Part shown: one piece after another, positions 2,427 to 54,202 of the stretch
Layout: every line of letters begins with the position of its first letter
Numbering within the stretch: the stretch's first letter is position 1
Assembly: GCA_017395715.1 (NCBI GenBank)
Contig: JAFQNZ010000211.1
Span: 1 to 54,202 of the forward strand
DNA: 54,202 bases
Reading direction: 5' to 3'
Source: Clostridia bacterium
GTDB lineage: Bacteria; Bacillota; Clostridia; Oscillospirales; CAG-272
Position numbers and translations under genes: made by a program
Notes under the pieces: generated by a model
Told to the model about the DNA's origin: nothing
The model's input: only the letters and a program-made list of their open reading frames with translations
Databases searched by the model: none

Positions 2427-3829
2427 CAGGCATCCTCCTCGAAGTAACAACCGTTTTTGCGGTAGGTCGAACAGCGTTTCTTGTAGCTCTTGACAAGAAA
2501 GCCAATGTCATCTACGAAGTCATAAGCAATGGGCGGCTTCTTACCCTCATGAGTACGGGCGATTCTGCCGATGGACTGCGTAATGACTGCGTAGTCTTTT
2601 TGTGGAGTGGTCAGAAAAAGCCGTTCCAAACAGGGAATATCCAAACCCTCTTTGGCGAGGGAGTAGGTAGCGAACAGATACCGCTTGCGGCCTGTGCGCA
2701 TATCCTCGATAGCCTGTTCCCGCTCTGCTTTTCCCTTCTTGGTGGTCATCTTTCCGCTTATCATGACCGACATTTCCCGCATGGAGCGAGGAAGCGTATT
2801 CATGAGAGCTTCGAGGTGATTGAGCCTGTCGGAGAGAATCAGGCAGGGGTGGTCGGCTTCTGCGACAATCCACGAGCCGATGTAGTGGGTGCGTTCCTCG
2901 TTCTCGCACAAGTAGCTGATGAGCTTGGTGTAGTTGATCGTTCCGTCTGTATTCAGGCATTCACGACTCAGCTTCACGCCTGTACCAAGGGGCTTGATAC
3001 CCACCTGCATGATCTTGTCCTTGACCGCTTCATCAGGTACGGTGTGAACCACATGACCGAGAAGGGCGTAAGTGGCAGGAATCATGCCGTCTGCACGGTG
3101 AACTGTTGCGGATAGACCGTATTTATGCCTTGCGGATAGGCTGTTGAGCACCTTGAAGAACTGCGTCATGGCGGTGGGCGTTCCCGCTACACGGTGACAC
3201 TCATCCACGATGATTACATCCCACAGGTCTTTGTACTGAGCCAAATCCAATCGGCACATGGTCTGAATGGTGGCAAAGGTGATACCCTGACCGATATTCA
3301 CCTTACCTTCGGTGATCGTACCAATGAGCCGTTTGTCCATGTACCGCTCGGCTCGTGCTTTGCTCTGATTGAGCAGGTCTGCCGTATGGGTCAGCCACAG
3401 AGCACGTCTACCGTAGCGCATCACAAGGGCAATGCCCATTTGGGTTTTTCCGCTTCCTGCGGGGCTTTGGAGTATGCCGTAGCGACATTCCTTCACCACG
3501 TTCACCGCATCGTCCTGATAGGAGTAGAGCGGTACTTCACCGCCATAGGCGATCTCAACGGGTTCAGGGAACTCGCTCGTACAAGGATGACCCCATAGGA
3601 AGTGCTGAACGTCTCGGAGAATGCCGAAAGGGAGAATCAGCGCATTTCCTCGGCGTTCGTAGAGGGAAAGGGTCTTGGGAGTGTTGCCCACCCAGAAGTG
3701 CATCCGCACCTTCTTGGCGTATTCGGGGTTGGGAATGACGAGGTGTTCTTCACACCAATCGTTCAAGGCTTGGGAAGGATTTTCGACCGTGATGGTCGCA
3801 CCGATGCTCACTCGCATAGCTTCACCCAT
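2426..3829 (-). CDS. Superfamily-2 DEAD/DEAH-box helicase
   Basis: Walker A SPAGSGKT and Walker B DECH, with C-terminal helicase motifs (TTPQKDYAVITQSIGRIAR). The start could also be 3817. Confidence 0.8.
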   Translation of the reverse strand: MGEAMRVSIGATITVENPSQALNDWCEEHLVIPNPEYAKKVRMHFWVGNTPKTLSLYERRGNALILPFGILRDVQHFLWGHPCTSEFPEPVEIAYGGEVPLYSYQDDAVNVVKECRYGILQSPAGSGKTQMGIALVMRYGRRALWLTHTADLLNQSKARAERYMDKRLIGTITEGKVNIGQGITFATIQTMCRLDLAQYKDLWDVIIVDECHRVAGTPTAMTQFFKVLNSLSARHKYGLSATVHRADGMIPATYALLGHVVHTVPDEAVKDKIMQVGIKPLGTGVKLSRECLNTDGTINYTKLISYLCENEERTHYIGSWIVAEADHPCLILSDRLNHLEALMNTLPRSMREMSVMISGKMTTKKGKAEREQAIEDMRTGRKRYLFATYSLAKEGLDIPCLERLFLTTPQKDYAVITQSIGRIARTHEGKKPPIAYDFVDDIGFLVKSYKKRCSTYRKNGCYFEEDA

Positions 3830-4206
3830 TCGTCCAATGTCACATAGCGGCGAATGTTTTCGGCCTTAATGAAGGAAATGGTCTTCTGAGCGATGAGAAT
3901 GTCACGATGAGGAATCATGTGAATCGCACCGTCATTGAGCTTCATTGCAAACCATCCATCACCGTTGCCGCAATTCCCCCAAAGCTCCATTGAAAGGTCT
4001 TGGTTGTCTTCCATGCGACTCAGAGCGAAGCCCTTACCTGAACAAACCTTGCAGTCAATCAGGTAGGCCACTCGGTTTCTCACGGCGAGTACATCGGCGG
4101 GTTGTCCTGCGCTGTTCTGTGCCATGTTGTGCGCCCAGAATCCGTATTCGGAAAGGCGTTCGCACAACTCAGCTTCAAAGGCGTTTCCGAGCTTTCGATT
4201 ACTCAT
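3808..4206 (-). CDS. Holliday-junction resolvase-like PD-(D/E)xK nuclease (Hjc-like)
   Basis: GNAFEAELCERLSEYGF ... ADVLAV ... AYLIDCKV matches the Hjc-type G-x-x-x-E ... D ... E/D-x-K pattern. Confidence 0.6.
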   Translation of the reverse strand: MSNRKLGNAFEAELCERLSEYGFWAHNMAQNSAGQPADVLAVRNRVAYLIDCKVCSGKGFALSRMEDNQDLSMELWGNCGNGDGWFAMKLNDGAIHMIPHRDILIAQKTISFIKAENIRRYVTLDEWVKLCE

Positions 4207-4435
4207 ACTTGACCTCGTTCAGAATGTCGAGTACCCCTTCACCGATTATCCCTCGATTCGGCTGTGAGCCGATCACTCCCTTGGCTTCATCCACCAGATC
4301 GAGAATGGATTTGATGCGATCTTCGTAGAACTCAGCCGCATCGTCTCCCATGTACTCCCTCAGCAGGTCGATGAAGTGACGGTCTCTTGAAACTACCTCC
4401 CTTTTACCGTCTTTCAATCTCAGCATTGTTGCCAT
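4199..4435 (-). CDS. Hypothetical protein
   Basis: 78-aa ORF with GAGGA RBS, translationally coupled to the downstream gene. Confidence 0.6.
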   Translation of the reverse strand: MATMLRLKDGKREVVSRDRHFIDLLREYMGDDAAEFYEDRIKSILDLVDEAKGVIGSQPNRGIIGEGVLDILNEVKYE

Positions 4436-4450
4436 GGGCTTTTCCTCACA

Positions 4451-4468
4451 CAGCCCCTAACGGGGCTG
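4451..4468 (-). promoter_or_regulatory. DGR target-site hairpin downstream of VR1 (7-bp stem, 4-nt loop)
   Basis: cagcccc-taac-ggggctg lies 2 nt past the stop codon. No U-tract follows. It has a covarying twin at 12411-12428. Confidence 0.7.
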
Positions 4469-4470
4469 AT

Positions 4471-5067
4471 TCACAGATGAAAGATGCAAGCGGGCGCGAG
4501 ACCGTGGGCACCGTAGGCACTGAGGCTGTCCACAGTACCGTCAGAATAGACAAGGCGCACAGAGTGGGCGTTCCCAGAGTAAGGAGTGCCGCAATGCCAA
4601 GGCGTACACGTCCACATCCACTCATCAAACAGCGGAACGATCTTACGGTACTTGCGGTAGAGATCGCAGGAGAGAATGCCGATCTTGTCCACGCACTTAC
4701 CATAGGCCGTATCGCCGTTATCGGCGGTGAGATCGGATTCAAAGGGAAGCAGGTCGTTCTCATCCATCAGGGAAAGGAACTCGGTGTTGAGCTTCTTGCG
4801 AGCACGGGACTTCGCCCAGTTGTTACAACCGTTGGGGTCGAACGCTTCCTCAGCGATGGGCTTGGCAGTCATGCACAGGACACCGCCCTGTTCGAGACCA
4901 AGCCGAATGAACTCGATACCGTGATACATGAAGTGCTCGCCATCCTTGATCTTGGAGAAGTCAGGACGCTTGGCATTCTGAATGGCGGTCTTGATCTTAT
5001 CGAGGGTCTTGGACGCGCTATCTTCGGATTCATTGATGAGGTTTTCGATACTCTCAATCAGATTCAT
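4471..5067 (-). CDS. DGR target protein 1 (198 aa, variable C-type-lectin-like C-terminus)
   Basis: The C-terminus ...GTPYSGNAHSVRLVYSDGTVDSLSAYGAHGLAPACIFHL is encoded by VR1. The TR translation is TPNSGNANNVRLVNSDGTVNNNNANNANGLAP. Confidence 0.85.
   Translation of the reverse strand: MNLIESIENLINESEDSASKTLDKIKTAIQNAKRPDFSKIKDGEHFMYHGIEFIRLGLEQGGVLCMTAKPIAEEAFDPNGCNNWAKSRARKKLNTEFLSLMDENDLLPFESDLTADNGDTAYGKCVDKIGILSCDLYRKYRKIVPLFDEWMWTCTPWHCGTPYSGNAHSVRLVYSDGTVDSLSAYGAHGLAPACIFHL
4486..4589 (-). repeat. DGR variable repeat VR1 (remote target), including the IMH-like 3' end at 4486-4503
   Basis: 4492-4589 aligns with TR 11814-11911. In my hand alignment all 14 mismatches fall where the TR coding strand has A. 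Confidence 0.85.
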
Positions 5068-5070
5068 GAT

Positions 5071-5232
5071 TCATACTCCTTCCGGTGCTTTGTGACCATA
5101 CCGCTTCTGATACCATTCCTGAAAGGCTTTCTCATGAGCGGGGTCTTTGTAATACTCCAATATGGTATCGACCATACCGAGCAGGGGTCTTGCGAGGTCG
5201 GCTACCTGAGACGAACTAAGTGGATTACCCAT
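5071..5232 (-). CDS. Hypothetical protein (53 aa)
   Basis: Start moved to the ATG at 5232, preceded by AAGGAG. It overlaps the cro-like stop by 8 nt. Confidence 0.5.
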   Translation of the reverse strand: MGNPLSSSQVADLARPLLGMVDTILEYYKDPAHEKAFQEWYQKRYGHKAPEGV

Positions 5233-5434
5233 CTTTCTTCTCCTTCGCTTCAAGGTCGGAGAGAATCTGCTTGACCATTTCAAGCACCCTCGTAGCTTTC
5301 GGGTAGGTGTTCACACCACTCAAAATCTGAGACATTTCGGGCGGCTGAACTACGATACCTCGCTCTCGCAGTTCAAAGATGAGCCGCACCTGTGTCATAC
5401 CGAGGGCTTTCATTCTCTCTCGAATCTGGAACAT
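5225..5434 (-). CDS. Cro-like HTH regulator (first gene of the leftward early operon)
   Basis: 69 aa. MKALGMTQVRLIFELRERGI...SQILSG is HTH-like. It is divergent from the CI-like gene. Confidence 0.6.
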   Translation of the reverse strand: MFQIRERMKALGMTQVRLIFELRERGIVVQPPEMSQILSGVNTYPKATRVLEMVKQILSDLEAKEKKDG

Positions 5435-5695: not shown

Positions 5696-6085
5696 ATGAA
5701 CTTTGCCGACAATTTGAAGCGAATCTGTACTGAACGAGGAACTTCCCCGACCGCCCTTTTGAAGTCGATGGGCGTAGCCACATCCAAAGTTGCGATGTGG
5801 AATAGCGGCTCTCTCCCCAAGCAGGAAATGCTCATCCGTCTCGCCAAGGAGCTTGATTGCTCTGTCATGGACTTCTTTGCTGATGACGCTGATCTCGCCG
5901 CACAGAATATCAATAAGACCAACGCTGATGCTGAACCCAAGAACGAGGATGAATCTGACATTCTCCGAATCTTCCGTTCTCTTTCAAGGAGAGCCAAGCA
6001 TGAGTTCATGTCTATGGCCTACGAATTTGAGACACGCGAAGAATTGACAGGGGATAACGCAAACGATCAATCGTCTGTTATCTAA
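5696..6085 (+). CDS. CI-like XRE-family HTH repressor
   Basis: N-terminal NFADNLKRICTERGTSPTALLKSMGVATSKVAMWNSG is an XRE-type HTH. The RBS is GAGAGGAG. Confidence 0.75.
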   Translation: MNFADNLKRICTERGTSPTALLKSMGVATSKVAMWNSGSLPKQEMLIRLAKELDCSVMDFFADDADLAAQNINKTNADAEPKNEDESDILRIFRSLSRRAKHEFMSMAYEFETREELTGDNANDQSSVI

Positions 6086-6172: not shown

Positions 6173-7723
6173 ATGACGAAAGCTGTGATCTATGCTCGTT
6201 ATTCGAGCCACAATCAGAGAGAAGAATCCATCGAAGGCCAGATTCGAGAGTGTCAAGACTTCGCCGCTCGAAATGATATGACCATCGTTGGTGAATATAT
6301 TGATCGTGCGATTTCGGGTAAAACCGACAATCGTGCTGAATTTCAGCGCATGATACGAGACTCGGAACGTGGACACTTCCAAGTCGTGCTTGTCTATGCC
6401 ATTGACCGCTTCGCTCGCAATCGCTACGATTCAGCTATCTACAAGGCCAAGCTGAAAAAGAACGGAGTCAAGGTCTTCTACGCAAAACAGTATATCCCTG
6501 ACACACCCGAAGGTATCATCCTCGAATCCGTCATGGAGGGCTATGCTGAATACTACTCTCAAAACCTCGCCATCCACATCAAACGAGGAATGAAGGAAAA
6601 CGCCCTTCAATGCAAGGTTACAGGGGGAACAACCCCTCTCGGCTACCGTATTGGAGAGAACAAGACCTATGAGATCGACCCCGCAGGTGCGAAGATCATC
6701 CAAGAGATATTCCAAATGTACGCTGATGGTTCATCGGCTACCCAGATCGTCAACTACTGTAATGAACAGGGCTACCGCACCGCTCGTGGTGGTAAGTTCA
6801 ATAAGAACAGCCTGAGAACGATACTCCTCAATGATAAGTACATCGGCATTTACCGCTACGAAGATATTGAGGTCGAAGACGGAATCCCTGCGATCATTAC
6901 CAAGGAGCTTTTCGAGAAGGTACAGGCCATGTTCCACCACAACCATGCGGCAAGGGCAAAGACCAAGGCCAACGCAGACTACCTCCTCACAACCAAACTG
7001 TTCTGCGGACATTGCGGCTCGAACATGGTTGGTGAGAGCGGTACTGCTCGTAATGGTGATACTTATTACTACTATAAGTGTTCTAATCGTAAGAAGAATC
7101 ATTCCTGCACCAAGAAGACTGAGAAAAAGGATTGGATTGAGGAGATCGTAGTTCGTCATACTGTCTCCACCGTCCTTACAGATGAGAGCATTGAACTCAT
7201 CGCTACCAAAGCAATCGAACTCATGGAGAAGGAGTTTGCCGAAAATTCGGTCTTGACCGCTTTAGAGCAATCCTTGAAGGATGTAGAGAAGCGAATCAAG
7301 AATCTCCTTGATCTCATGGAACAAGGTATCGTCACACCAAGCACGAGAGAACGTCTCCTCGAATTGGAATCTCAGAAAAGTGACCTTGACCAACGAATTG
7401 CCCGTGAGAGCATGAAAAAACCGCCCTTGTCGAAAGAGCGGATTATCCATTGGCTCATGACGTTCAGGGGCGGTAATGTAAAAGATGTAGAATATAGGCG
7501 TAGAGTGATCGACACTCTCGTCAATTCCATCTATGTTTTCGATTCAGAAGACGGCGATGGAAGGAAAATCGTCTTCACATTCAATGTTTCTGGCCAGAAC
7601 ACTTCTACTATCCATGTTTCGGATATTGCGTGTTTCGCTCCACCATACGGTGCAAATCCGAACCACTTCTTCTTTGTGAAGAACGTCTTCGGGTTTGTGA
7701 AAGAAATAGAGGTCACGGCATGA
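6173..7723 (+). CDS. int: Large serine recombinase (phage integrase)
   Basis: Resolvase-type N-terminus AVIYARYSSHNQ...IEGQ and YAIDRFARN, followed by a recombinase domain and a Cys-rich zinc-ribbon region (CGHCG...YYYKCSNRKKNHSC). 516 aa. Confidence 0.9.
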   Translation: MTKAVIYARYSSHNQREESIEGQIRECQDFAARNDMTIVGEYIDRAISGKTDNRAEFQRMIRDSERGHFQVVLVYAIDRFARNRYDSAIYKAKLKKNGVKVFYAKQYIPDTPEGIILESVMEGYAEYYSQNLAIHIKRGMKENALQCKVTGGTTPLGYRIGENKTYEIDPAGAKIIQEIFQMYADGSSATQIVNYCNEQGYRTARGGKFNKNSLRTILLNDKYIGIYRYEDIEVEDGIPAIITKELFEKVQAMFHHNHAARAKTKANADYLLTTKLFCGHCGSNMVGESGTARNGDTYYYYKCSNRKKNHSCTKKTEKKDWIEEIVVRHTVSTVLTDESIELIATKAIELMEKEFAENSVLTALEQSLKDVEKRIKNLLDLMEQGIVTPSTRERLLELESQKSDLDQRIARESMKKPPLSKERIIHWLMTFRGGNVKDVEYRRRVIDTLVNSIYVFDSEDGDGRKIVFTFNVSGQNTSTIHVSDIACFAPPYGANPNHFFFVKNVFGFVKEIEVTA

Positions 7724-9809: not shown

Positions 9810-10127
9810 TTACAGTCCGAGCTTGGTCAGGGCGAGAGTCACAAGAGCGGTCACGATGACCGTGATCGCAACGGTGACTACGGTGTCCCATCGCTTACTC
9901 GGCTTTTCCTTGATTTCTTCCAGATCGGTAGCAAGACCATCGACCTTCTTACCAATGTCCTTCTGCTCATGAGCCATAAGCTGAACAGACATAGCAAGGT
10001 CTTTCACGCTCTCTGCGAGGGATTTCAGGTCATTGATCTGATTGAAAGCGGTCTTGATTTGTTCAGTATGCCGAGTGACCCGCTCATCCAGTTCGACATA
10101 CTTTTCCGTCAACTGCTCGTGCGTCAT
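9810..10127 (-). CDS. XhlA-like lysis-associated membrane protein
   Basis: N-terminal coiled coil plus a C-terminal TM segment (WDTVVTVAITVIVTALVTLALTKLGL). It sits upstream of the holin. Confidence 0.55.
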   Translation of the reverse strand: MTHEQLTEKYVELDERVTRHTEQIKTAFNQINDLKSLAESVKDLAMSVQLMAHEQKDIGKKVDGLATDLEEIKEKPSKRWDTVVTVAITVIVTALVTLALTKLGL

Positions 10128-10618
10128 TCATCTGCTACCTCCGTCCAGCCGTATACACCCGGCTCCCACACGTTGCCATCAACGTCCGAGACCCACTTCT
10201 TGTCATTGTGGGTGGTCTTCGCGCCCTTGTCGTAAGCATCGTGAGCACCCACGGGCTGACTCCAAGCGGGGTATTCCACGGAGGGGTCTCCCACTTCAAC
10301 CCACAGGGAGGGGCTTACGTCAGGAGTCCAATCAGCCTGAGTGGTGTGTGCCTGAACGCAACGATAGAGCTTTTTGGCAGAACCTTCGGTTTCACCACCG
10401 TAGGTACGAAGCTGACCCACGGTAGCATTGACACCCACAACCCACGGGGCAAAGGTGTCGATATTCTCGGTCGCGGTCACATCATCGATCATGCCGTTTT
10501 CAGCCATGGTCACGAACGCGATGGAGGAGGTGAGTTCACCCTGCGTAGCTACCTGATCGGCGTGCTGACCTGCGGCCTGAGCACGCGCTACGCGCAGTTC
10601 AATCGGTACTTTAATCAT
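10124..10618 (-). CDS. Putative carbohydrate-binding (CBM5/12-like) protein
   Basis: Two W/Y-rich segments: YRCVQAHTTQADWTPDVSPSLW and HNDKKWVSDVDGNVWEPGVYGW. ATGA overlap with the RT stop. Confidence 0.4.
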   Translation of the reverse strand: MIKVPIELRVARAQAAGQHADQVATQGELTSSIAFVTMAENGMIDDVTATENIDTFAPWVVGVNATVGQLRTYGGETEGSAKKLYRCVQAHTTQADWTPDVSPSLWVEVGDPSVEYPAWSQPVGAHDAYDKGAKTTHNDKKWVSDVDGNVWEPGVYGWTEVADE

Positions 10619-11721
10619 GGTTCTTTCCTTCCTTTCAGATCATAAAAGTAGTGTTCCATGCGTTGCCGTTGGTAGAAGGTGTCACCTCGCTTTGCATTCG
10701 CTCGCCAAGCGATGAAGCTATTGCGTGTTGTTCCTTCTGCGAGCAAACCCGCACGTTCTTTTGCCATGAGTTTCTTCATCTTGCGTCTCTGTTTGCCGAG
10801 CTTCTTACCGTTCATGTACCGCAGGATTCTTCCTGTATCGGCGGCAATGACGAACCGCCAATTCATCATGCGGACACCCTGCTTCAAGGGGTAGAGGGTC
10901 GTTTTCTTATTGAGTTCCAAACCCAACGCTTGAACCTTCTCCTCAATCCGCTTACGGCACTCCTGCAAATAAGACTTGTCAGGATGTATCAGCACAAAAT
11001 CATCCATGTAGCGCAGGTAGTGCTTGATTCTCAGCCGTTCCTTGATGTAATGGTCGAGATCGTCAAGCACCGCCAATTCCACCAACTGACTGATCTGACT
11101 TCCGAGTCCGATACCTGTATCGCCCTCGAAGGAATCAATCACATTGCAAACTGCCTGTGCCGCTCTATCATCCGAAATACGCTTACGAACCGCATTCTTT
11201 GCGACTTCGTGCGAGGTTGAAGGGAAAAACTTCCGAATGTCGCATTTGAGTACCCAACCTTCCGTACCATGCTCCAAGTAATACCTGCGCAGGTGAGCGG
11301 TCATGCGGTCGAGGGTGAAGTCTGTACCCTTTCCCGTCTGACACGCGCCGTTGTCATGTATCAAATGCTCCACCATGTCATTGTATAGACCTGCCATACA
11401 CAGAGCCTTTTGAAACTGACGGTCTCTCAGGCGGGTCGCTACGATCTCCCTTTTCTTCGGTTCATAGACTGTGAAGTGCTGATAGGGACTGATTCTGTAT
11501 TTGCCTTTGAGCAAGTCCTGCCGTAAGTGATAGGTGTTCTTTAGGCCGTTGGCTTCATACCCAACCACACTATCCTTCCACCGCACGTTGCGGCAGGACT
11601 TCTTCAAGGCTTTGTACAGATTTCCGAACTCTATGGCTTTATCAAAATATTGGTCATTCATAAAGGGGTCATGGGTGCTCGGTAGCAAGGCCACCCCGCA
11701 AGGTGCTTGCGTCACCCACAT
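10615..11721 (-). CDS. DGR reverse transcriptase
   Basis: RYMDDFVLI (YxDD box) and IGLGSQISQ ([I/L]GxxxSQ, DGR-RT hallmark). ATG at 11721 is preceded by GAAAGGAGCG. Confidence 0.9.
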   Translation of the reverse strand: MWVTQAPCGVALLPSTHDPFMNDQYFDKAIEFGNLYKALKKSCRNVRWKDSVVGYEANGLKNTYHLRQDLLKGKYRISPYQHFTVYEPKKREIVATRLRDRQFQKALCMAGLYNDMVEHLIHDNGACQTGKGTDFTLDRMTAHLRRYYLEHGTEGWVLKCDIRKFFPSTSHEVAKNAVRKRISDDRAAQAVCNVIDSFEGDTGIGLGSQISQLVELAVLDDLDHYIKERLRIKHYLRYMDDFVLIHPDKSYLQECRKRIEEKVQALGLELNKKTTLYPLKQGVRMMNWRFVIAADTGRILRYMNGKKLGKQRRKMKKLMAKERAGLLAEGTTRNSFIAWRANAKRGDTFYQRQRMEHYFYDLKGRKEP

Positions 11722-11807
11722 TTTTCGCTCCTTTCAGAGACAGGATAATCACTCCTTGTGTGAGTGTACTGCTTTCGGCTCGAAGCCTACTCGAATCGGA
11801 CTTTCTC

Positions 11808-11935
11808 ACAATCGGGCGCGAGACCGTTGGCATTGTTGGCATTGTTGTTGTTCACAGTACCGTCAGAATTGACAAGGCGCACATTGTTGGCGTTCCCAGA
11901 GTTAGGAGTGCGCAACCACCAATTCGCCGCCGAAC
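11808..11935 (-). repeat. DGR template repeat (TR, 11814-11935) with IMH*-like 3' end
   Basis: The coding-strand sense is AAC/AAT-rich (…AAC AAC AAC AAT GCC AAC AAT GCC AAC GGT CTC GCG CCC GAT TGT). It has no start codon and lies between avd and the RT. Confidence 0.9.
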
Positions 11936-11954: not shown

Positions 11955-12377
11955 TTACCCTAATTGGAGTTTAGCCGTGTATCGCGTTTTATCAGACTTC
12001 ATCCAATTTTTCAGTCTGTCATCGGCTTTCAGGACAAGACCCGTCCAGTATTCCACCCGATTAGACTCAATCCCGAATGAGGTATAGGCGAGATCAATCA
12101 GGGAAAGCAGAGCTTCCAAATGACTGTGCGCCTGTACCTGCTGATTTCGGCGATACTCGAAATCGCTGACCGTATCAACGAACACGGCGTTCGCTCTGCG
12201 GACGCAAGTAAGAGCGGCTATACACTCGTCTACAATCGGCTTCGCCATGACCCAACGCGAGGACTTCGGAAACACCTTTTCCGACCTGCAAATCTGAATC
12301 GTGTACGCGCCGAGATTGGCTATGTCATTCAGCACTCCGAGCGTACCGTCACTTCTATCTCCTGTTCTAACACTCAT
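11955..12377 (-). CDS. avd: Avd-like DGR accessory protein (helical bundle)
   Basis: About 140 aa, predicted helical and basic, positioned between the target gene and TR. ATG at 12377 follows AGGAAGG. An alternative TTG lies at 12410. Confidence 0.6.
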   Translation of the reverse strand: MSVRTGDRSDGTLGVLNDIANLGAYTIQICRSEKVFPKSSRWVMAKPIVDECIAALTCVRRANAVFVDTVSDFEYRRNQQVQAHSHLEALLSLIDLAYTSFGIESNRVEYWTGLVLKADDRLKNWMKSDKTRYTAKLQLG

Positions 12378-12410
12378 ATCCTTTACCTTCCTTTGAGATT
12401 GATCTATCAA

Positions 12411-12428
12411 CTGCCCCTAACGGGGCAG
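12411..12428 (-). promoter_or_regulatory. DGR target-site hairpin downstream of VR2
   Basis: ctgcccc-taac-ggggcag has the same loop as 4451-4468, with a compensatory A:T to T:A swap in the stem. Confidence 0.7.
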
Positions 12429-12437: not shown

Positions 12438-13568
12438 TTACACGATGGTGCAAGCGGGCGCGAGACCGGAGGCAGAGTAGGCATAGTAGTTGGACACAGT
12501 ACCGTCAGAACGGACAAAGCGCACAATGACGGCGTACCCAGAGCTAGGAGAGCGCAACCACCAATTCGCCGCCGAACCGTCACGATACTTGATGCGGTCA
12601 GCATTGCCAGCACCTTCATAGAAGGGGAACAGCACCGTACCATCGTTCACATCATGACTGCCGAAAATCTCAGCACGGCTCGCAATGTAGAACTCATCGT
12701 TCAGGGTATAAGCCGTACCCTTGGTGATGGTGCTGTCGGGAGCTTCATAGATGTTGTTCGCCGAGCACGGCAGAACCACCTTACCCACCACAGCGAGGAA
12801 GTCCTGATCGAGACCGTTCTTGTAACCCGCCAGAGAGGTCAGCCAAGACGGAGGACGGTCGAACTTGGTCTGCGGAGTCCACACGCTACCTGCGGCGGCA
12901 GAACTATTCAGGAACTGACGCATCGCGCTCTCCTTGTAGTTGTTACTGCCGTAAGAAACGCGCTGAATGCTGTTGATTGCACCCTCACCGAACGTACCGA
13001 GGTTCGTGCCGCCGCTACCTGCGGTAATGGCAACAGATTCAGTAGCCGTGTTCGTGGTACGATTGGCGAAGGACTGCACTTTCAGAGAAGTGATCGCCGT
13101 GCTCTCGTAGCCGTTGATGCGAAGCTGACCACCCGCAGGAACAGCCTGAGTGAGCGTGAACTGATAAGTACCCGCCGCCCAACCACCGTATGCGGAAGCG
13201 AGAATCACGTTGTAAGTACCCGCCGCCAGCTGAGTCTCGGCGTAGTAGAACGCTTCGGGTGCATCGAACTGAGTACCGGGGAGCAGGTCGTGTTGCTGAA
13301 TGGTCATGGTGTGGGCATTCTCGTCATGAACGGATTTCAAATAATCATGCGCCACAACATCAAACAGGCGAGTGCCGTATACGCTGTGATTGACTGCCAG
13401 CTGAGTACCCACAGGCAGAATGTCCTTCGCAATGCCCGAACGCACCGCTTTCTGAATACCTTCCCAAGTGGAAATGTCCACCTGACTGCCGACCGCCTTA
13501 GCGATCTTTGCAAGGTTCTCGTTCATAACGTCCATCTGTTCCTTGGTGGGGAGAAAGAGCTTACTCAT
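12438..13568 (-). CDS. DGR target protein 2 (putative receptor-binding tail fibre protein)
   Basis: 376 aa and last gene of the tail module. The C-terminus ...ANWWLRSPSSGYAVIVRFVRSDGTVSNYYAYSASGLAPACTIV is encoded by VR2. Confidence 0.85.
   Translation of the reverse strand: MSKLFLPTKEQMDVMNENLAKIAKAVGSQVDISTWEGIQKAVRSGIAKDILPVGTQLAVNHSVYGTRLFDVVAHDYLKSVHDENAHTMTIQQHDLLPGTQFDAPEAFYYAETQLAAGTYNVILASAYGGWAAGTYQFTLTQAVPAGGQLRINGYESTAITSLKVQSFANRTTNTATESVAITAGSGGTNLGTFGEGAINSIQRVSYGSNNYKESAMRQFLNSSAAAGSVWTPQTKFDRPPSWLTSLAGYKNGLDQDFLAVVGKVVLPCSANNIYEAPDSTITKGTAYTLNDEFYIASRAEIFGSHDVNDGTVLFPFYEGAGNADRIKYRDGSAANWWLRSPSSGYAVIVRFVRSDGTVSNYYAYSASGLAPACTIV
12450..12577 (-). repeat. DGR variable repeat VR2 (cis target), including the IMH-like end at 12450-12467
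   Basis: 12456-12577 aligns with TR 11814-11935. There are 17 mismatches at TR-adenine positions and one non-adenine mismatch (TR 11876 g vs VR 12518 a). Confidence 0.9.
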
Positions 13569-16672: not shown

Positions 16673-17053
16673 TCACTCTCCCACATCGATGATGTTCGCC
16701 TTGCAGTCCAAGTAATACTTGGGTTTGTTGGTGATGGGGTCAACCATGAACGGCTGTGCCGTTCGATCACCAACGTAGAACTTGCGCGTAACCCAATCAT
16801 TCGTAACCATGTCGATGTATCGGACAGAGAACGTGAACTTCTCAAACTCTTGGAGCATTCGAGACCACACTTCGGGAGTCAGCACACTCCAAGTCAGTTC
16901 GATCTTGCCCATGTCTCTGCCGATACGCTCGCCACGCATTACGCCGTCAGCCGTTCTCGCACTATCCACAATCGTAGAGACCTGTTGCAGTCCGCTACTC
17001 TTGCTGGGGTACGGGAACGCTATGCCGTTAATGTAAATGAATCCATTAGCCAT
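16673..17053 (-). CDS. Small tail component (Dit position)
   Basis: ATG at 17053 overlaps the tape-measure stop by 8 nt. 126 aa. Confidence 0.45.
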   Translation of the reverse strand: MANGFIYINGIAFPYPSKSSGLQQVSTIVDSARTADGVMRGERIGRDMGKIELTWSVLTPEVWSRMLQEFEKFTFSVRYIDMVTNDWVTRKFYVGDRTAQPFMVDPITNKPKYYLDCKANIIDVGE

Positions 17054-20000
17054 GACTGAACGCCCCCATTCCCAGATCATAGCCACGATTTCGGGCTATC
17101 TTCTGCTGATTTTCGTAGATTTTCTCGCCGTCAAGGTAGACATTGATGCGAGCGGGTTCACCGCCGTCATTGCCACCCATTGCCGCAGATACGGCCTGAT
17201 AGACACCGATGGAAACAGCGTCTACAATCTGATCGTTGTTCGCAACAGCGGTACGACCGCCGATGCTACCAACCAACTCAGGCCCGGCTTCTCGTGCCAC
17301 GAACATCTGACCCGTAGGAACGAAACCGCCGTCCTTCTTGAAGGTGATGCTATCGCCGCTTACCGTACCCGTGAAAGTGACCTTCGTACCCGCACTCTTG
17401 GCGAGCTTGATATAGCAGGTCTTCGTCCAACTGCTCGATACAAAAGAACTCAGGCTTGTCCAACCGTCCTTCGCAAGAGAGATACTTACCGAACCGCTCT
17501 CGCTCGTACTGTTGTCCTTACACCATTGAGAAATGCTCTTGTTCGCCCAGTTACCCTTCGCCAAGTCAACAGACTTCGTAACCTTACCACCGAAGATGGA
17601 GTCAAGCAAAAGCCATGCGGCAACCGTAGCGACACCGCTCAGGAAGCCCGTTTTTAGTCCGATAGACTTCGTAACAGAGCCGCCCATTTTGTTGTTGGTA
17701 ATCCAAGAGCCAATAGAACTCCACGCAGAGGTGTTGGTTACTCCGATACCCTTGGTTACATCGCCGCCCATCTTATCGGTAGAAATCCAGTTCGCAACCG
17801 TGCTCCACCCCTTCTTGATGAGTTCGACCATGGGTTGCAGGACAGGAAGATTGACCGAGAGCAGACCTTCCTTCAAGCCCGTAGCCGAATCCGAACCAAT
17901 GGTGGTGAAACTACCCTTGGTGAACAAAGCTACAATCTTGCTCTTTACGTTGGTACTGAACCACCCGCTGACAGGAGACCAGTTCGTCTCGGTGTCGTTC
18001 TTCGCACCGAGGAAAGCCGAGACAATCCCGCTACCGAGATTCGTGAACAGCGTTCCAATCGGAGAGGAAACGATCTTCGAGAACCAATCGCTCACAGGAC
18101 TCCATGCGCTCTTACTGTCATCCTTCGCACCCGTCATCTTACTGATGATCGTAGTACCGAGGGTAGAGAACAGAGTGCCGATGGGAGAACTGACGATCTT
18201 ACTGAACCACCCGCTGACAGGAGACCAGTTCGTCTCGGTGTCGTTCTTCGCACCGAGGAAGTAGCTGATGATATTCGCAGTAAGCGTGGAGAACTTGCTG
18301 TTGGTGGGGTCGGTCACGGTCGTGCCAAACCATCCACTCATCGGAGACCACGTTTCCTGCACATCATCCTTGGTGTCTTGGAACAACTGACTTACATCCG
18401 CATTCATTCCCGTGAACTTGCTCACGATGATGTTGATGAAGTTCTGGAACCAAGCAGGGAGATTCGTCCAAGTGTCTTTCAGCTTCGTACCGAGCGTAGC
18501 AAGACCTGCGAGCAGACCTTCTACGATGTAGATACCAAGCCGCTTGAACAACTCGGAAGGACTGTGTACTTCGTTCTCAGTAGCCGCCGTATCATACGGA
18601 ATACCGAAGATTTCGGCGAGTGCCTTGATAGTGTCATTCATTTCGGTGTCGATACCAAGAATCATGCCATCCACAAGGTCAATACCGAGAGCCTTGAACA
18701 TTGCCGTCATGGTCGAATCATTCTTAGCAAGCGAGATTTCAGTTCCATCCTTCAAAGTCAGAACAATGTCACCCGCTTCATCCTCAATGATACTGGTAGC
18801 ATTACTCATACCGTTGGCGATAACGCTTGTCAGATCATAACCAAGGTTTTCGAGCATGGCTTGTGCTCTCGAAGTCCCGAAGGTTTCAGACAGCGAATTG
18901 TAGAACTGCGTTTGAACTTCCGTACCGAGAATATCCCAATCGGTAAATCCAAATACATTCTTAGCTTCGATCAAGACCTGCTTGTCCTTCTTATCCAAGG
19001 TGCTGTAAAAGACTTCCCAGAACTTTGTATCGAAAGCATTCGCAAGGTCTTCGATAGAGCGATTCTCAATCATCCATTGGTCGCTACTCCACGACTCAAA
19101 GAATCTCTGCATAACAGAGGATTCTCCTGCTTCGATAGCCTTGGGAGAGAAAATCTCCTGTAATGCAGTCAAGAAAGACTGTCTTGCTTTCTCGGTGTCC
19201 GCAGTTACAGCCGCTTCAACGCTACCTGCAACATCAAGTGCGGCAATATCCGCTTCAAGTTGGCGAATAGTCTCATCCATCGACTCAACCATATCGTCAT
19301 TCCCCTGCTTGACATAGAAAGCGCGAAGTTCTTTGGCGGCAACCAAACGACCTTCCATTTCGCCTTGCGCGGTAGTCATGGCATCCGCATAAGACGCTTG
19401 AAGTTCTGTAACCATCGTCTGATACTCACTCAATACATCCTTGAAAGAGTCTCGCGTGAGATCGCTGAGTTTCAGGTCGAGAGTAGAATCGAACTTGCCA
19501 GAAATGCTACCTGTCGTAAGTGCGAGAGAGATATTCGTCAAGGTTTGTTGAATAGCATTCAACAGAACAGATTCACTTGCCGTTAATCCATCCGTCATAC
19601 CCTTGACCATAAGGTCACTCATCTGCTTACCGAGATCATCAATACCGGCTTCGAGGAGTTTATCGGTGCTCATGATATTACCGAGCATATCGGCAACATT
19701 CATGTCTTCACCGTTCACATTCTTCGGAGGTACGATGCTGAATGTAAGCGTCAACTGATTTTCAGATTCATCCAACAACGATTTGATCTTGGGAATCAAA
19801 CCATCTTCGCCCGTAAGCTGATTGGTCAATTCTTCCTTCAAATCAGGGTCAATCTGAGCACCAATTTCGACCTTTTTCAGATTGGCATTGAACAATTCGG
19901 TCGAAACAGACAGAGCTTCCTTTGCGGTTTCAACATTGGCTATAACGCTTCCGACAAGATTGATGCGCGGTTCAATGTCAAACTCGAACAACCCCTTGGC

Positions 20001-29814: not shown

Positions 29815-31461
29815 TCAATACGGTCTCTGAATGATTCGTACCTCAGCCCCCGCAAGCCCCTGAATGAACTCGGCGAACATCGCCATGGCATCAGGTACGT
29901 CATCGTGCTTATTCTTACCCGCCATGGTGTAGGTGCAAAGCATATCCATGAACCTGCCGTAATCACTCGATCTCTTATACAGGCTCTTGTCCCTGAACAG
30001 GCAATGTTCCTTCACCCATGCGCTGTTGACGATGATCTTGGTCTCCTTATTGGCGGTGGTGAACTTGGTGGTGATGTGGGTGATACCACCCTGCTTCTTG
30101 ACTTCCTTCTGAACCTTCTCGGCAACACGACCACCTGCGCTGTTGCTCTCAAAACGGCATTGATGCACCTTGTTTTTCAGCAGAATCCCAATGAGACGAG
30201 CGTCCACCGTATCAGGCAAACCGTTGTCACAGATCACATCTTCGATATAGTAGTCATTACCATAGCAGTAGCCAACGGGAAGCACAGCGAAGTCCGTACC
30301 CTTATCCTTGGTATCGCAGACAGCCAAAATGCCGTCAGGAGCGGTGCTCGGCAGATCGAAATATCTGCGAAGCTCGTCTTCATCGTATACAAGACCCTCG
30401 CGCTCAATGGGTTCGTTCATATACAAGGCTCGCCAGCTGGCATCATCCATAATATCACGCTGTTCATGGTAGACCTTGGTGGAGAAACCCACGCCGTAAG
30501 CGTAATCGAAATTGCTCTCATCATTCGCATCCAAAGCGGGAATGACAATGAATTTCGCCCTCGGATTGTTGCTATACTCACTTTCAAGCCGTCCGATAAC
30601 GTCATGGACGCTCCAACGGGTAGCAATGTGAAGCTCCTTGCACTTATCACCGATCTTACGCTGACGAAGGTCGGTGGTGTAGGTCTGCCACAGCTTGTCC
30701 AAGCGTTCCTTACTCAGAGCAACCTCGATACCACTCACAAGGTCATCGCAGTAAAGCAGGGTAGCCGCACGGTACAAACCCGCATTACCCGTACCGATGG
30801 AGGTAAATTCAAGGGTCTCGAATCGTTTGGGGTCTCCCAGATCAATGCGGCAATCCTTCGCATTGGTACTGCATACATCCACATACGGGAAAACATCATG
30901 CCACAGGTATTCACCGTTCTTATCGAAGATGCGCAGACATTCGTCATATACACCGCGAACGAAGGAATTACTATGGCTACCCGTCAGCATAGGTTTATCG
31001 GGAATCTTACCCGCGAGCCACGTCAGGAAGAAAATCGCCAATGTAGTCTTGCCTACGCCCGGAGGAAGACTGATCGCCAAAAGGTCGAGCGCATCATCCG
31101 CAAGAGCTTGAAGCTCATCAACCACCGCTTTCAGAATCTTACGGCGGGGAGCATAGAATTTCTTACTCGGTTCCCTGTTCCATTCGATATATAATAGGTA
31201 AGAATCGAAATCGTCCTTTGCGGCGGCATGGAGCACCTGCTTGTGAAGGGAGAAGAAATTCCTCGCAAGAGGTAAATCTGTCTTCGCAAGAGAGGGAATG
31301 AGATCATTCAACCTCTCGGAAATCCATTTCAGCCATTTGAGACCCAGTTCCTTATCAGTTTTCAGAGCTTCCTTCGCAACTGAATACAAATCCTTATAAA
31401 TTCGGTAATTGAGAGGGTCTTTTTGCAGATTTTCCGCAATTTTCTCAATCAAATCAAGCAT
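29815..31461 (-). CDS. terL: Terminase large subunit
   Basis: Walker A LPPGVGKTT plus a C-terminal nuclease-type region. ATG at 31461 is preceded by GGAGG. Confidence 0.85.
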   Translation of the reverse strand: MLDLIEKIAENLQKDPLNYRIYKDLYSVAKEALKTDKELGLKWLKWISERLNDLIPSLAKTDLPLARNFFSLHKQVLHAAAKDDFDSYLLYIEWNREPSKKFYAPRRKILKAVVDELQALADDALDLLAISLPPGVGKTTLAIFFLTWLAGKIPDKPMLTGSHSNSFVRGVYDECLRIFDKNGEYLWHDVFPYVDVCSTNAKDCRIDLGDPKRFETLEFTSIGTGNAGLYRAATLLYCDDLVSGIEVALSKERLDKLWQTYTTDLRQRKIGDKCKELHIATRWSVHDVIGRLESEYSNNPRAKFIVIPALDANDESNFDYAYGVGFSTKVYHEQRDIMDDASWRALYMNEPIEREGLVYDEDELRRYFDLPSTAPDGILAVCDTKDKGTDFAVLPVGYCYGNDYYIEDVICDNGLPDTVDARLIGILLKNKVHQCRFESNSAGGRVAEKVQKEVKKQGGITHITTKFTTANKETKIIVNSAWVKEHCLFRDKSLYKRSSDYGRFMDMLCTYTMAGKNKHDDVPDAMAMFAEFIQGLAGAEVRIIQRPY

Positions 31462-31470
31462 TTTCGACCT

Positions 31471-31514
31471 CCAAAACAAAAATAGTGCATGATCGCGTCT
31501 TTGCAATCATGCAC
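31471..31514 (-). terminator. Intrinsic terminator immediately upstream of the terL RBS
   Basis: 9-bp stem gtgcatgat / atcatgcac. On the minus strand it is followed by TATTTTTGTTTT. Confidence 0.6.
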
Positions 31515-31519
31515 CATCT

Positions 31520-31870
31520 TCAAACTTCGAGTTTCTTCATGTACTCCTTGTATTCCAAGGTTTGATTTCCTACCTTGACGTGCTTTCGTGAGCCGTCAGC
31601 ATAGTATACCATAAAGATTGTCTCATTCACAGCCCTATTTCGTAATCCTACGCTCATATGGACTGTATCTATGATCTTGGTCTTCACAACTGTTCGAGCA
31701 AGAGCGGCTTTTTCTCGTTCAGCTTGCCATTCTTGACGTTGCTCGAAGGTTTTCTGTCTTCTCTGCTCATATTTACCTGACTTCTTCTCATGTCGGTCGT
31801 ATAAAATGATGACCGCGAAGATAATCACGGCGAATATCACAGCAAATATGAAAAACATCTTCCCGTCCAT
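31520..31870 (-). CDS. Membrane-anchored hypothetical protein
   Basis: N-terminal TM segment MFFIFAVIFAVIIFAVIILY followed by a charged region. Confidence 0.6.
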   Translation of the reverse strand: MDGKMFFIFAVIFAVIIFAVIILYDRHEKKSGKYEQRRQKTFEQRQEWQAEREKAALARTVVKTKIIDTVHMSVGLRNRAVNETIFMVYYADGSRKHVKVGNQTLEYKEYMKKLEV

Positions 31871-32516: not shown

Positions 32517-32562
32517 AATACTTCCTTACACAATACCGTTCAGAAATATTCCCATTCTTCCC

Positions 32563-36530: not shown

Positions 36531-36738
36531 AGGGAAGAAAGGGAATATTTTTTACGCAGAGCTTTTATATAGCGTATATAGCTTTATATATTCTCTTACA
36601 CGTTATCTTCTTAAAATATTCCCTAATTTCCCTATCTATAAAATCTCTTACACGATACCTTTTTAAAAGTTCCCATTCTTCCCTGAGAGTCGAAAGTCCT
36701 TATGCGTTAGATGAACGAAAAAGTTCCCTTTCTTCCCA
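36531..36738. repeat. Phased, iteron-like repeats upstream of terS
   Basis: A 21-bp element AAAA(T/G)(A)TTCCC(T/A)(T/A)T(T/C)TTCCC occurs at 36613-36633, 36665-36684 and 36718-36738, and inverted at 36531-36553. Larger units of about 42 bp lie at 36592-36633 and 36644-36684 (period 52 bp). Confidence 0.75.
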
Positions 36739-54146: not shown

Positions 54147-54202
54147 TACGACCTCCATTTCATTCAGCCGCAAAGGTAATCGACTACCTCATCGTACCGC
54201 TC
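54062..54202. repeat. Terminal overlap, identical to 1-141
   Basis: Base-by-base identity with the first 141 nt. Confidence 0.95.

Follow-up and report, generated by a model that had tools for sequence, protein, structure and literature searches.

A small protein of the early operon as a remote second target of a phage DGR

The phage genome analysed here is a complete circular genome, read as one stretch of 54,202 nt (the window), and it holds a single DGR. We conclude with near certainty that VR1, a variable repeat in a gene of the early lytic operon, is a bona fide and currently active second target of this DGR. VR1 combines TR/VR differences confined to adenines, a reverse transcriptase (RT) and an Avd protein, a predicted IMH and a downstream hairpin, and in public assemblies it displays ongoing, adenine-specific diversification. 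The gene that carries it (target gene 1; 4471..5067, minus strand; from the ORF list) encodes a protein of 198 aa, in which two N-terminal helices precede a single DUF6273 (C-type-lectin-like) domain.

One template repeat and two variable repeats

An ungapped scan of both strands found three copies of the repeat in the whole window: the template repeat TR (11809..11935, minus strand), VR1 (4487..4589, minus strand), which occupies the last ~35 codons of target gene 1, and VR2 (12451..12577, minus strand) in target gene 2. All 127 nt of TR are used by VR2 and the 3' 103 nt by VR1, which lies ~7.2 kb away from TR on the circular genome.

The sequence-only reading had counted 14 mismatches between VR1 and TR, all at TR adenines. 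This count is exact: 4492-4589 aligns with 11814-11911 free of gaps, and the 14 mismatch sites are T on the plus strand of TR and thus A on the coding (minus) strand. The homology reaches 5 nt beyond this span (4487-4589 against 11809-11911), and the added nucleotides contain a fifteenth mismatch, also at a TR adenine. As the 103-nt TR segment has 28 A, the hypergeometric chance that 15/15 mismatches fall on A is 9e-11; for the narrower span, with 14 mismatches in 98 nt, it is 6e-10. VR2 differs from TR by 18 A-site changes and one C>T. Both variable repeats are altered at 10 of the 28 A sites and carry the same base at only two of these ten, which agrees with the earlier claim that they have diversified independently.

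DGR machinery and recognition elements

The gene order at the DGR is Avd-TR-RT. The RT (368 aa; 10615..11721, minus strand) matches Pfam RVT_1 (E=6e-11) and phrog_1423 (E=8e-91) and contains the motifs LGSQISQ and YMDD, the former fitting [LIV]GxxxSQ, which we take to be the DGR RT motif. The Avd accessory protein (11955..12410, minus strand) was assigned by phrog_3206, 'Avd protein of DGR' (E=7e-18); its match to NCBIfam DivGenRetAVD is weak and far under the cut-off. The Avd ORF has 151 aa from a TTG start, and gene callers on relatives report 140 aa, which would put the start at ~12377.

In a three-way alignment, VR1 ends at its 3' side in an IMH-like element, GGTCTCGCGCCCGCTTGCA (4485..4503, minus strand), identical to the end of VR2 at 12449-12467; TR carries GGTCTCGCGCCCGATTGTG at the corresponding site (11807-11825). 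Past the stop codon of target gene 1, 16 nt 3' of the IMH-like element, DNA folding predicted a hairpin, CAGCCCC-GTTA-GGGGCTG (4451..4468, minus strand), and VR2 is followed by a near-identical one, CTGCCCC-GTTA-GGGGCAG (12411-12428). Both have a 7-bp GC stem and a GTTA loop, with modest fold z-scores (-1.6 and -1.9), and no hairpin was found by DNA folding after TR. In three other clades this site is occupied by a stem of 6 bp closed by a 4-nt GNNA loop, and the stem sequences differ. The IMH-like end and hairpin common to VR1 and VR2 indicate that the TR of VR2 also serves VR1, in trans.

By analogy with the established BPP-1 model, TR would be transcribed, and RT and Avd would make cDNA with unfaithful copying at TR adenines. 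This cDNA would then replace the VR at sites marked by the GC-rich IMH and the downstream hairpin.

VR1 varies at adenine-templated codons among relatives

Population variation at VR1, proposed earlier as a check on its activity, was assessed in public assemblies, and the result was strongly positive for adenine-site variation. Relatives at 96% identity have 14-15 nt differences in the gene; 11 fall inside VR1, and 11/11 of these are at TR adenines. Among 120 near-identical 198-aa homologues, each of the 12 AAY-templated codons (163, 166, 168, 169, 174, 180-183, 185, 186 and 188) encodes 11-15 different residues, with an entropy of ~3 bits. The highest value at the remaining positions is 1.4 bits, at residue 179 within the VR, and no position outside the VR exceeds 0.74 bits. 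One pair of genomes (L028 and L033) has 0 differences in 9525 backbone positions, 17 nt differences in VR1 and 18 in VR2. Another pair, L018 and L020, suggests that VR2 may change with VR1 left as it is.

TR is almost constant in ten genomes (0-4 differences), and VR1 and VR2 are saturated with differences. Three changes within TR, T>G at 11856, G>T at 11831 and A>T at 11836, recur in VR1 and VR2 of the same genomes. The invariance of TR, together with the copying of non-adenine TR changes into both VRs, suggests that sequence is transferred one way, from TR to VR.

Could VR1 nevertheless be a hitch-hiking or relic repeat, diversified merely because it carries recognition elements and of no adaptive benefit? 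In its favour, an identical gene persists in a mosaic relative (L017) beside a different DGR, with no cognate TR within 10 kb. This relative, a natural recombinant, appears to carry a frozen VR1. Toutatis-like phages likewise retain the gene even without a DGR (bioRxiv 10.1101/2024.10.15.618418). However, the target, the IMH-like end and the hairpin are kept in four clades that differ in their TR sequence, and purifying selection on the scaffold of target 1 is strong (pN/pS ~0.07), the gene being intact in 10/10 genomes. The AAY design of the TR codons avoids stop codons, and the variable positions are rich in Tyr, Gly, Ser and His instead of being evenly spread. We therefore regard a repeat without benefit as very improbable.

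A single ligand common to VR1 and VR2 was considered and set aside: at the 12 variable codons the two repeats have 2.0 residues alike within a genome and 2.1 between genomes, in a comparison of 10 genomes only, so there is no excess of within-genome likeness.

Target 1 is a divergent, stand-alone DUF6273 protein

Target 1 matches phrog_9958 over residues 36-196 (E=9e-50) and Pfam DUF6273 (PF19789) over residues 79-195 (E=3e-4), the latter scoring 21.0 bits, below the gathering threshold of 23.5. Many of its homologues at 91-96% identity have a precomputed PF19789 match. From the phrog_9958 match, the PF19789 matches in homologues and structural matches to DUF6273 proteins, we regard target 1 as a divergent member of DUF6273. 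An AF2 model (pLDDT 94.1, pTM 0.87) contains one compact domain, residues 45-196, preceded only by two short N-terminal helices. The 12 variable codons map to a loop and strands past residue 160, including a beta-hairpin at residues 179-190.

The AAY codons are rewritten within this small stand-alone domain, and purifying selection keeps the rest of the protein constant. Rewritten loop and hairpin codons on a constant scaffold predict a hypervariable ligand-binding protein.

In a Foldseek search of the PDB, the sole significant match was 9qa6 (E=2e-7, TM 0.61 query-normalised), and neither Mtd nor TvpA was among the top 50 matches. The structure 9qa6 is the N-terminal DUF6273 domain of the Thomasclavelia ramosa IgA peptidase (PMC12402451), which, unlike target 1, is a secreted, cell-wall-anchored multidomain protease and not a DGR target. 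Because mapping placed the recognition of IgA in the catalytic region of the peptidase and not in the DUF6273 domain (PMC12402451), the match says little about the function of target 1; we dropped it as a functional lead, the domain's own role in the peptidase being undefined. Foldseek also revealed a resemblance to DUF6273 phage proteins (structural-match E down to 7e-9), and several of these neighbours are annotated as receptor-binding or tail-fibre proteins.

The family of target 1 has 953 representatives at 50% clustering, mostly of 170-300 aa. The N-terminal helices are not conserved across it and are absent in some clades, the first ~40 residues being lineage-specific. Domain fusions gave no clue to function, as Pfam found only DUF6273 and one DUF6353 in ten longer members. 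Nor were disulfides decisive as a clue to location: the only common cysteines are C194 (82%) and C134 (60%).

Target gene 2 (12438..13568, minus strand), at the end of the tail module, encodes the 376-aa DUF6273 protein that carries VR2 (DUF6273 E=7e-17; phrog_19280 E=1e-71). The earlier claim that target 1 shares a C-terminal scaffold with this tail-module protein is supported, both being DUF6273 proteins whose last ~40 residues align. The accompanying claim, that the N-terminal 150 aa of target 1 are unrelated to target 2, holds for pairwise comparison only; residues ~45-196 form the same type of domain. With BLASTP and HHalign, alignment of the two proteins is confined to their last ~40 residues, and HHalign of the small-target family profile against target 2 covers only the C-terminal 40. 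The same region of the Pfam profile is matched by both (target 1 residues 79-195 to profile positions 28-169; target 2 residues 203-375 to 26-170). As direct alignment covers just the C-terminal 40 residues, the common domain rests on the Pfam profile and on structure.

DUF6273 is typical of phage tail, adhesin and Hoc-like proteins, and the TR that serves target 1 also serves a tail-module protein; both observations run against a role off the virion. They fit instead with target 1 being a virion-associated accessory receptor-binding protein or adhesin, similar in function to Mtd and encoded outside the structural module, which would attach to the tail or capsid and, beside the large target, extend the range of host or mucus binding. 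The display of variable Tyr, Ser, Gly, His and Asn residues on a hairpin surface is also in keeping with an adhesin. On the other side stand the simple architecture, with only two short helices ahead of DUF6273 and even these missing in some clades, the position of Mtd and TvpA outside the top 50 PDB matches, and the lack of resemblance between VR1 and VR2 within genomes. No virion-attachment domain was found in target 1 either by Pfam, which reports DUF6273 alone, or in the AF2 model.

Target 1 is the third gene of a cro-led operon

The early lytic operon begins with a cro-like gene (69 aa; 5225..5434, minus strand), which matches phrog_1468, 'transcriptional repressor', weakly (E=1e-3). A promoter-like site, TTGACA-17-TACAAT, lies upstream of it (5647-5619, minus strand). 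The cro-like gene is divergent from a gene for a cI-like HTH repressor (5696..6085, plus strand; phrog_4, phrog_8; Pfam HTH_3 weak), which is followed by a serine integrase gene (6173-7723, plus strand; phrog_95 E=7e-129); the interval between cI and cro contains divergent promoter-like sites. A 53-aa ORF (5071..5232, minus strand; from the ORF list and gene calls on relatives, no family match) shares 8 nt with cro and stops 3 nt short of the ATG of target 1, which has a Shine-Dalgarno-like GGAAGGAG 9 nt before it. Directly downstream of target 1, a 78-aa ORF (4199..4435, minus strand) overlaps the gene for an Hjc-like resolvase (3808-4206; Pfam and phrog profiles).

The genes around target 1 overlap or pack tightly, and between cro and Hjc no terminator-like site was found on the minus strand. 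Relatives, with genes called independently, have the identical 69/53/198 order. The neighbours of target 1 are Hjc-resolvase, helicase, HNH, methylase, polymerase/Erf and RecE-like genes, and along the direction of transcription it lies >25 kb before the terminase and structural genes. The sequence-only reading had placed the 198-aa ORF third in the operon, after the cro-like gene and the 53-aa ORF, among replication and recombination genes and outside the structural module, and our analysis agrees in each respect. The synteny integrase-cI-cro-target-Hjc-helicase-pol/Erf-RecE is kept in four clades at 42-67% protein identity. This placement, as third cistron of the cro operon and far ahead of the structural genes, counts against an adhesin.

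Target 1 has no signal peptide, lipobox or transmembrane segment, and no signal-peptide-like N-terminus was found in it or in 104 family representatives, so that Sec secretion seems unlikely. A borderline TM-like hydrophobic stretch occurs in two of the 104 representatives. A missing signal peptide is equally compatible with a virion and with a cytoplasmic location. Searches with PADLOC and NCBIfam returned no match for target 1, the 53-aa ORF or the 78-aa ORF, and target 1 matched no known defence or counter-defence family.

Early receptor-blocking proteins have a precedent in Llp of phage T5. Target 1 might by analogy mask receptors or exclude superinfection, at the envelope or after lysis, by binding the kind of surface ligand that the tail protein binds and so sparing lysing cells or progeny wasteful adsorption. 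Early expression, as judged from gene position, beside the immunity region would be consistent with this, and the modelled lectin-like fold might suit surface glycans or proteins. However, a protein with no signal peptide, lipobox or transmembrane segment would have no surface access before lysis; the gene is on the lytic strand downstream of cro, so expression in the lysogen is not expected; and VR1 does not track VR2. We consider such a masking function improbable.

Small second targets in other phages

A megablast search of INPHARED with 25 kb of the window revealed no close relatives among GenBank phages. At the protein level, tblastn revealed homology of target 1 to nd4_tgt2, FP_Toutatis gp24 and the Lelie locus (E=2e-22, 2e-13 and 2e-13; 83-85% of the query). 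A two-target DGR is also reportedly described in the paper on Roseburia phage Shimadzu.

The proteins nd4_tgt2 and nd12_tgt2 are the second DGR targets of the gut myophages nd4 and nd12 (Baykov et al. 2023, PMC10743442), and target 1 has 36% identity to the 234-aa nd4 CDS (30965-31669). They resemble target 1 in having a single DUF6273 C-lec-like domain with short helices and the VR in the C-terminal part of the domain, in sharing one TR with a larger DUF6273 target, and in displaying the VR-coded residues on a surface beta-hairpin. One TR with a larger DUF6273 partner, and a VR in the C-terminal part of DUF6273, are also seen in L016 and nd4, and the nd4 VR matches repeats ~10 kb off, near the RT. 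The nd4/nd12 phages differ from the window phage in being myoviruses with a tail sheath, and in their large partner, 'tentaclin', the VR is close to the N-terminus; where target 1 has N-terminal helices, nd4_tgt2 instead has a helical extension at its C-terminus. Their authors regard tgt2 as part of the DGR cassette and likely a receptor binder, and the accessible sections of the paper contain no discussion of its early-module position (PMC10743442).

FP_Toutatis gp24 (Egorov & Atkinson, bioRxiv 10.1101/2024.10.15.618418) and the Lelie locus, probably its small target (PMC11792537), each show 29% identity to target 1. Lelie, a phage of Faecalibacterium L2-61, can be induced. The small target of CP11 is 33% identical to that of Lelie (HHalign probability 97%), and both CP11 VRs are active across cognate genomes (PMC11792537). 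As with target 1, these are small DUF6273 proteins with a second VR distant from TR and early or replication surroundings; the second VR of FP_Toutatis lies 17,480 nt from TR (bioRxiv 10.1101/2024.10.15.618418). These Faecalibacterium phages belong to other genera, CP11 being ~36 kb as against the 54-kb circular genome of the window, and in the window phage the gene sits directly in the cro operon beside the immunity switch. In the unrelated phages nd4 and FP_Toutatis, too, the homologues are surrounded by early or replication genes, at distances of ~10 and 17.5 kb from their TRs, and this recurrence of early placement argues against an adhesin. All three papers on homologues favour a receptor-binding or adhesion role (PMC10743442, PMC11792537, bioRxiv 10.1101/2024.10.15.618418). 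A search of Cornuault 2018 (PMC5883640) for virion proteomics terms gave no match.

In Quimbyvirus, one DGR serves two C-type-lectin targets; the first follows the tail genes, and the second is distal and was argued to be non-structural and tied to phage-host conflict (Benler et al. 2021, PMC8008677). The sequence-only reading had put forward the same concept for target 1, the two being likened by description only. It is a Bacteroides phage of ~75 kb, unlike the window phage, and its remote target is on the opposite strand among methylases, a nuclease and a tRNA ligase.

The sequence-only reading had called it unusual for a phage DGR to diversify a non-structural, early-expressed protein in trans. 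This is overstated: small single-domain DUF6273 second targets homologous to target 1 have been published for nd4/nd12 (PMC10743442) and FP_Toutatis (bioRxiv 10.1101/2024.10.15.618418), small DUF6273 second targets for Lelie and CP11 as well (PMC11792537), and the concept of a remote non-structural target for Quimbyvirus (PMC8008677). In view of these second targets (2023-24; Quimbyvirus 2021), target 1 is not new as a kind and reveals no new kind of system.

Discussion

The archetype of a DGR-diversified receptor binder is not what target 1 resembles in layout. The gene for Mtd of Bordetella phage BPP-1 adjoins its DGR. Mtd and target 1 have in common a C-terminal VR, which in target 1 lies on a putative C-type-lectin-type fold, with mutagenesis at A, an IMH and a hairpin. 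Mtd has 381 aa, and its N-terminal beta-prism and beta-sandwich domains are thought to fix the trimer on the tail fibre (PMC10743442). Target 1, in contrast, has 198 aa, lacks an N-terminal prism and sandwich and is encoded 7 kb from the DGR in the early operon, not with tail genes by the DGR.

Where, then, does target 1 act? Its place as third cistron of a cro-led operon, the lack of a signal peptide and the lack of a detectable virion-docking domain suggest early synthesis in the cytoplasm and an action away from the virion, not as a tail-tip receptor-binding protein. We hold this to be plausible, if a little short of probable. One example would be a variable binder engaged in conflict between phage and host or between phages, another a soluble protein freed at lysis. 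A virion adhesin, the role preferred by the authors who described homologues (PMC10743442; bioRxiv 10.1101/2024.10.15.618418), is a serious but less probable alternative, and we slightly favour a non-virion binder over it. Of the earlier proposal of an intracellular or secreted binder, the early, non-structural position is upheld, Sec secretion is disfavoured, and the binding role is deduced from gene position.

More speculatively, and with rather low probability, target 1 may be an intracellular, DGR-diversified, antibody-like binder that is made in the first minutes of lytic growth and neutralises variable host defence proteins or competing mobile elements. If so, the DGR would serve counter-defence besides host recognition.

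Phage DGRs are usually explained as tropism switches on tail fibres, and a conserved, actively diversified second target in a cro operon fits this picture poorly. The system described here has several assets as a test case: a complete circular genome, a simple switch region, at least 120 natural VR1 protein variants in public assemblies, genome pairs that differ only in their VRs, and a natural recombinant with an apparently frozen VR1.

A template repeat with two variable repeats

The template repeat (TR, 11809–11935) of the diversity-generating retroelement (DGR) has two variable repeats in the window, VR1 (4487–4589) and VR2 (12451–12577); a scan of both strands found only these three copies. 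On the minus strand, the DGR reads target 2 (a 376-aa DUF6273 tail-module protein, 12438–13568), Avd (phrog_3206), TR and reverse transcriptase (RT), the last matching RVT_1 and phrog_1423 and containing LGSQISQ and YMDD motifs. VR1 lies in target 1, a 198-aa protein encoded by 4471–5067(-). The sequence-only reading had counted 14 mismatches between 4492–4589 and 11814–11911, all at TR adenines, and an ungapped alignment on the minus strand agrees. The homology extends by another 5 nt (4487–4589 against 11809–11911), which adds a 15th mismatch, also at an adenine. Given 28 adenines in 103 positions, the probability that all 15 mismatches fall on adenines is about 9e-11, and VR1 showed no non-adenine difference from TR. 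VR2 uses the full TR span (127 of 127 nt), VR1 the 3' 103 nt only. A single VR2 difference is non-adenine, with C at TR 11876 and T at VR2 12518 (coding strand). Ten adenine sites are altered in both repeats, and only two of the ten carry the same new base; VR1 and VR2 have therefore been rewritten independently, as had been proposed.

Both variable repeats end 3' in GGTCTCGCGCCCGCTTGCA, the TR counterpart of which is GGTCTCGCGCCCGATTGTG. Nearly identical hairpins follow 16–20 nt 3' of each VR (CAGCCCC-GTTA-GGGGCTG, 4451–4468, for VR1; CTGCCCC-GTTA-GGGGCAG, 12411–12428, for VR2), and no hairpin was found after TR. We take these VR ends and hairpins to be putative counterparts of the IMH and hairpin/cruciform target marks of the BPP-1 system. 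Three other clades of related phages have a 6-bp stem with a GNNA loop at equal distance, with differing stem sequences, and in some of these clades the hairpin lies inside coding sequence. Two such loci (L016, 10486–10546; L010, 6522–6591) contain TGTGCC-GNCA-GGCACA within coding sequence, where it encodes CRQAH; in these clades, whose small target is extended at its C-terminus, DNA element and protein sequence overlap.

Variation of VR1 among related phages

The window gene differs from two IMG/VR relatives (96% protein identity) at 14–15 nt, 11 of them in VR1 and all 11 at TR adenines. A large protein search with target 1 returned 481 matches, and each of the top 120 has a length of 198 aa and 91–96% identity. 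Among these 120, codons 163, 166, 168, 169, 174, 180–183, 185, 186 and 188 have an entropy of about 3 bits (11–15 residues), and these are exactly the 12 AAY codons of TR. The next-highest value, 1.4 bits at residue 179, is still within VR1, and the maximum outside is 0.74 bits.

About 9.5 kb was aligned from each of ten genomes in which both VRs were assembled. Two of these (L028 and L033) are identical across 9525 nt of backbone, yet show 17 nt differences in VR1, every one at a TR adenine, and 18 in VR2, 17 of them at TR adenines; both VRs have changed. Another pair, L018 (JGI 3300024268) and L020 (Logan SRR7031456), shows no difference in 8744 nt of backbone or in VR1 and 19 nt in VR2; evidently the adjacent target can turn over while the remote target holds. 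Across the ten genomes, VR differences are saturated at any backbone divergence (0–6.5%), at 11–23 nt for VR1 and 14–27 nt for VR2, and TR differs by 0–4 nt. Three non-adenine TR substitutions (T>G at 11856, G>T at 11831, A>T at 11836) are mirrored in VR1 and VR2 of the same genomes, the signature that one TR templating both repeats would leave. A newly gained TR adenine (G>A at 11855) corresponds to a variable position in the VRs. The second, remote VR is thus confirmed by repeat alignment and population variation, and these comparisons give good support to the view that VR1 is being diversified now, and to the mechanism.

In L029 (ENA ERZ28594295, scaffold_284, 1520–2646) the large target is called as two ORFs of 240 and 149 aa, a split that points to a frameshift or to faulty assembly; the VR2 of this genome is still unlike the others at adenine sites. 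The mosaic relative L017 (ENA ERZ27248370, contig k141_1843796, 1–11000) has an early region and VR1 protein identical to P0003, the variant found on more contigs than any other (24 read). Its DGR is unrelated, with a 391-aa RT and its own TR (1704–1822) paired with a VR (1491–1609) in a 484-aa protein, with all 11 mismatches falling on adenines. Within 10 kb, VR1 has no cognate TR, and the L017 VR1 therefore looks orphaned or frozen.

Target 1 as a DUF6273 protein

Target 1 matches phrog_9958 (E=9e-50; PHROGs, function not assigned), and Pfam DUF6273 covers residues 79–195 at slightly below the gathering score. An exhaustive search among 50%-identity representatives yielded 953 relatives, mostly of 170–300 aa, 104 of which formed the AlphaFold2 alignment input. 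The resulting model (pLDDT 94.1, pTM 0.87) has helices at 3–13 and 18–32 and a single compact alpha/beta domain at 45–196, with strands 169–173, 179–183 and 187–190 among those in the VR-coded part. Its sole significant match among solved structures is the IgA peptidase of Thomasclavelia ramosa (9qa6, E=2e-7), the N-terminal domain of which is annotated DUF6273 (PMC12402451); classical C-type lectins match weakly. Matching predicted viral structures are DUF6273 proteins, some annotated as receptor-binding or tail-fibre. The suggested lack of relationship between the first 150 residues and the tail target therefore stands for pairwise and profile-to-sequence comparison and fails at the domain level, given the DUF6273 match and the model.

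The N-terminal helices are lineage-specific, and some clades have a C-terminal extension in their place. No signal-peptide-like N-terminus was found in target 1 or the 104 representatives; a borderline TM-like hydrophobic stretch occurs in two of the 104 and is absent from the window protein. The ORF has a Shine-Dalgarno-like GGAAGGAG 9 nt upstream of its ATG and is intact in all ten genomes, where scaffold codons 1–159 have a pN/pS of about 0.07. That VR1 and target 1 are a non-adaptive relic appears very improbable.

Genomic setting of target 1

The window carries an exact terminal direct repeat of 141 nt (1–141 and 54062–54202); the contig closes into a circle and makes up a complete genome of about 54,061 bp. 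Almost all genes lie on the minus strand, the exceptions being the serine integrase and the cI-like repressor. The cI–cro gap holds divergent promoter-like sites, each with 11/12 consensus positions, and the minus strand between cro and the resolvase gene showed no terminator-like site. The early operon runs from cro (69 aa) through an overlapping 53-aa ORF, target 1, a 78-aa ORF, an Hjc-like resolvase and a helicase to HNH, methylase and topoisomerase-like genes. Past the circle junction follow polymerase/Erf, RecE-like exonuclease, NrdD and primase, and only later terminase and structural genes. Target 1 is thus third in the operon and outside the structural module, as originally described.

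The order integrase–cI–cro–target–Hjc–helicase–pol/Erf–RecE is conserved in four clades, with proteins 42–67% identical, and TR is clade-specific in each clade where it was captured. In nd4 and FP_Toutatis, which are unrelated phages, homologues likewise lie among early/replication genes; the nd4 VR has matching repeats about 10 kb off, adjoining RT. Clostridia and Acutalibacteraceae MAGs contain related prophages, and one homologue takes its name from an Oscillospiraceae MAG.

Several other loci vary or repeat. The cI-like repressor (5696–6085) is 76% identical to those of two relatives (L003, 1145–1516; L004, 1742–2113), in which the flanking integrase, cro, 53-aa, 78-aa and Hjc products are 98–100% identical; it looks like an exchanged immunity allele, and repressors of relatives have 124, 125 or 129 aa. 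A 1174-aa ORF (50649–54173(-)) joins matches to a radical-SAM protein (residues 13–332), a DNA polymerase (345–944) and an Erf-like annealing protein (942–1165). Relatives have versions of 1165, 840 or 824 aa with other genes ahead, and the region is therefore modular and variable. A 164-aa CBM_5_12 carbohydrate-binding-module protein (10124–10618(-)) lies between RT and the holin/lysin genes, a place kept in relatives. An AT-rich 47-nt motif (TATA..TCTCTTACAC..AAAATATTCCC) occurs at 32515–32561, 36585–36631 and 36637–36683, the last two in tandem 52 nt apart, and may represent repeated regulatory sites. Three 68-nt repeats spaced at 123 nt (17947–18260(-); outer two 96% identical) lie inside a 1948-aa ORF (17046–22892), assumed from size and position to be the tape-measure gene.

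Possible roles and known two-target systems

We tentatively lean, at somewhat under even chances, towards a non-virion role, in which target 1 would be made early in the cytoplasm and act off the virion. This reading is favoured because the gene lies in the cro operon at a conserved position, because target 1 showed no docking domain and conservation of its short N-terminal helices does not extend across the family, because no export signal was found, and because VR1 is unlike VR2 within one genome, no within-genome likeness having been seen. A role as virion adhesin is a serious possibility: the DUF6273 family is typical of phage adhesins, the partner target is a tail-module protein, and target 1 matches no known defence or counter-defence families. 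A receptor masking or exclusion factor is unlikely, and a role outside all of these readings is highly unlikely.

The original interpretation is partly supported: active VR1 diversification and the conserved early place find support, the presentation of the case as unusual does not. Baykov et al. (2023; PMC10743442) described two-target DGRs in nd4 and nd12, where target 2 consists of one DUF6273 C-lec domain with helices at its flanks and a 3' VR; these target 2 genes are the tblastn matches of target 1. In FP_Toutatis, 17,480 nt separate TR from a second VR gene, which is core in 98.8% of Toutatis-like phages, some without a DGR (Egorov and Atkinson, bioRxiv 10.1101/2024.10.15.618418). Lelie and CP11, from a Faecalibacterium prophage study, have large and small DUF6273 targets, and CP11 cognates show activity at both VRs (PMC11792537). 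All three studies prefer a receptor-binding or environment-binding role. Quimbyvirus has a remote, probably non-structural target tied to phage–host conflict (Benler et al., 2021; PMC8008677). The authors of a metagenome DGR survey noted that remote targets would escape it (Roux et al., 2021; PMC8144416). No close relatives of this lineage were found among GenBank phage records. Novelty as a kind is low; given the earlier descriptions, the window therefore adds a phage lineage to a described kind, in a system that is clean and testable.
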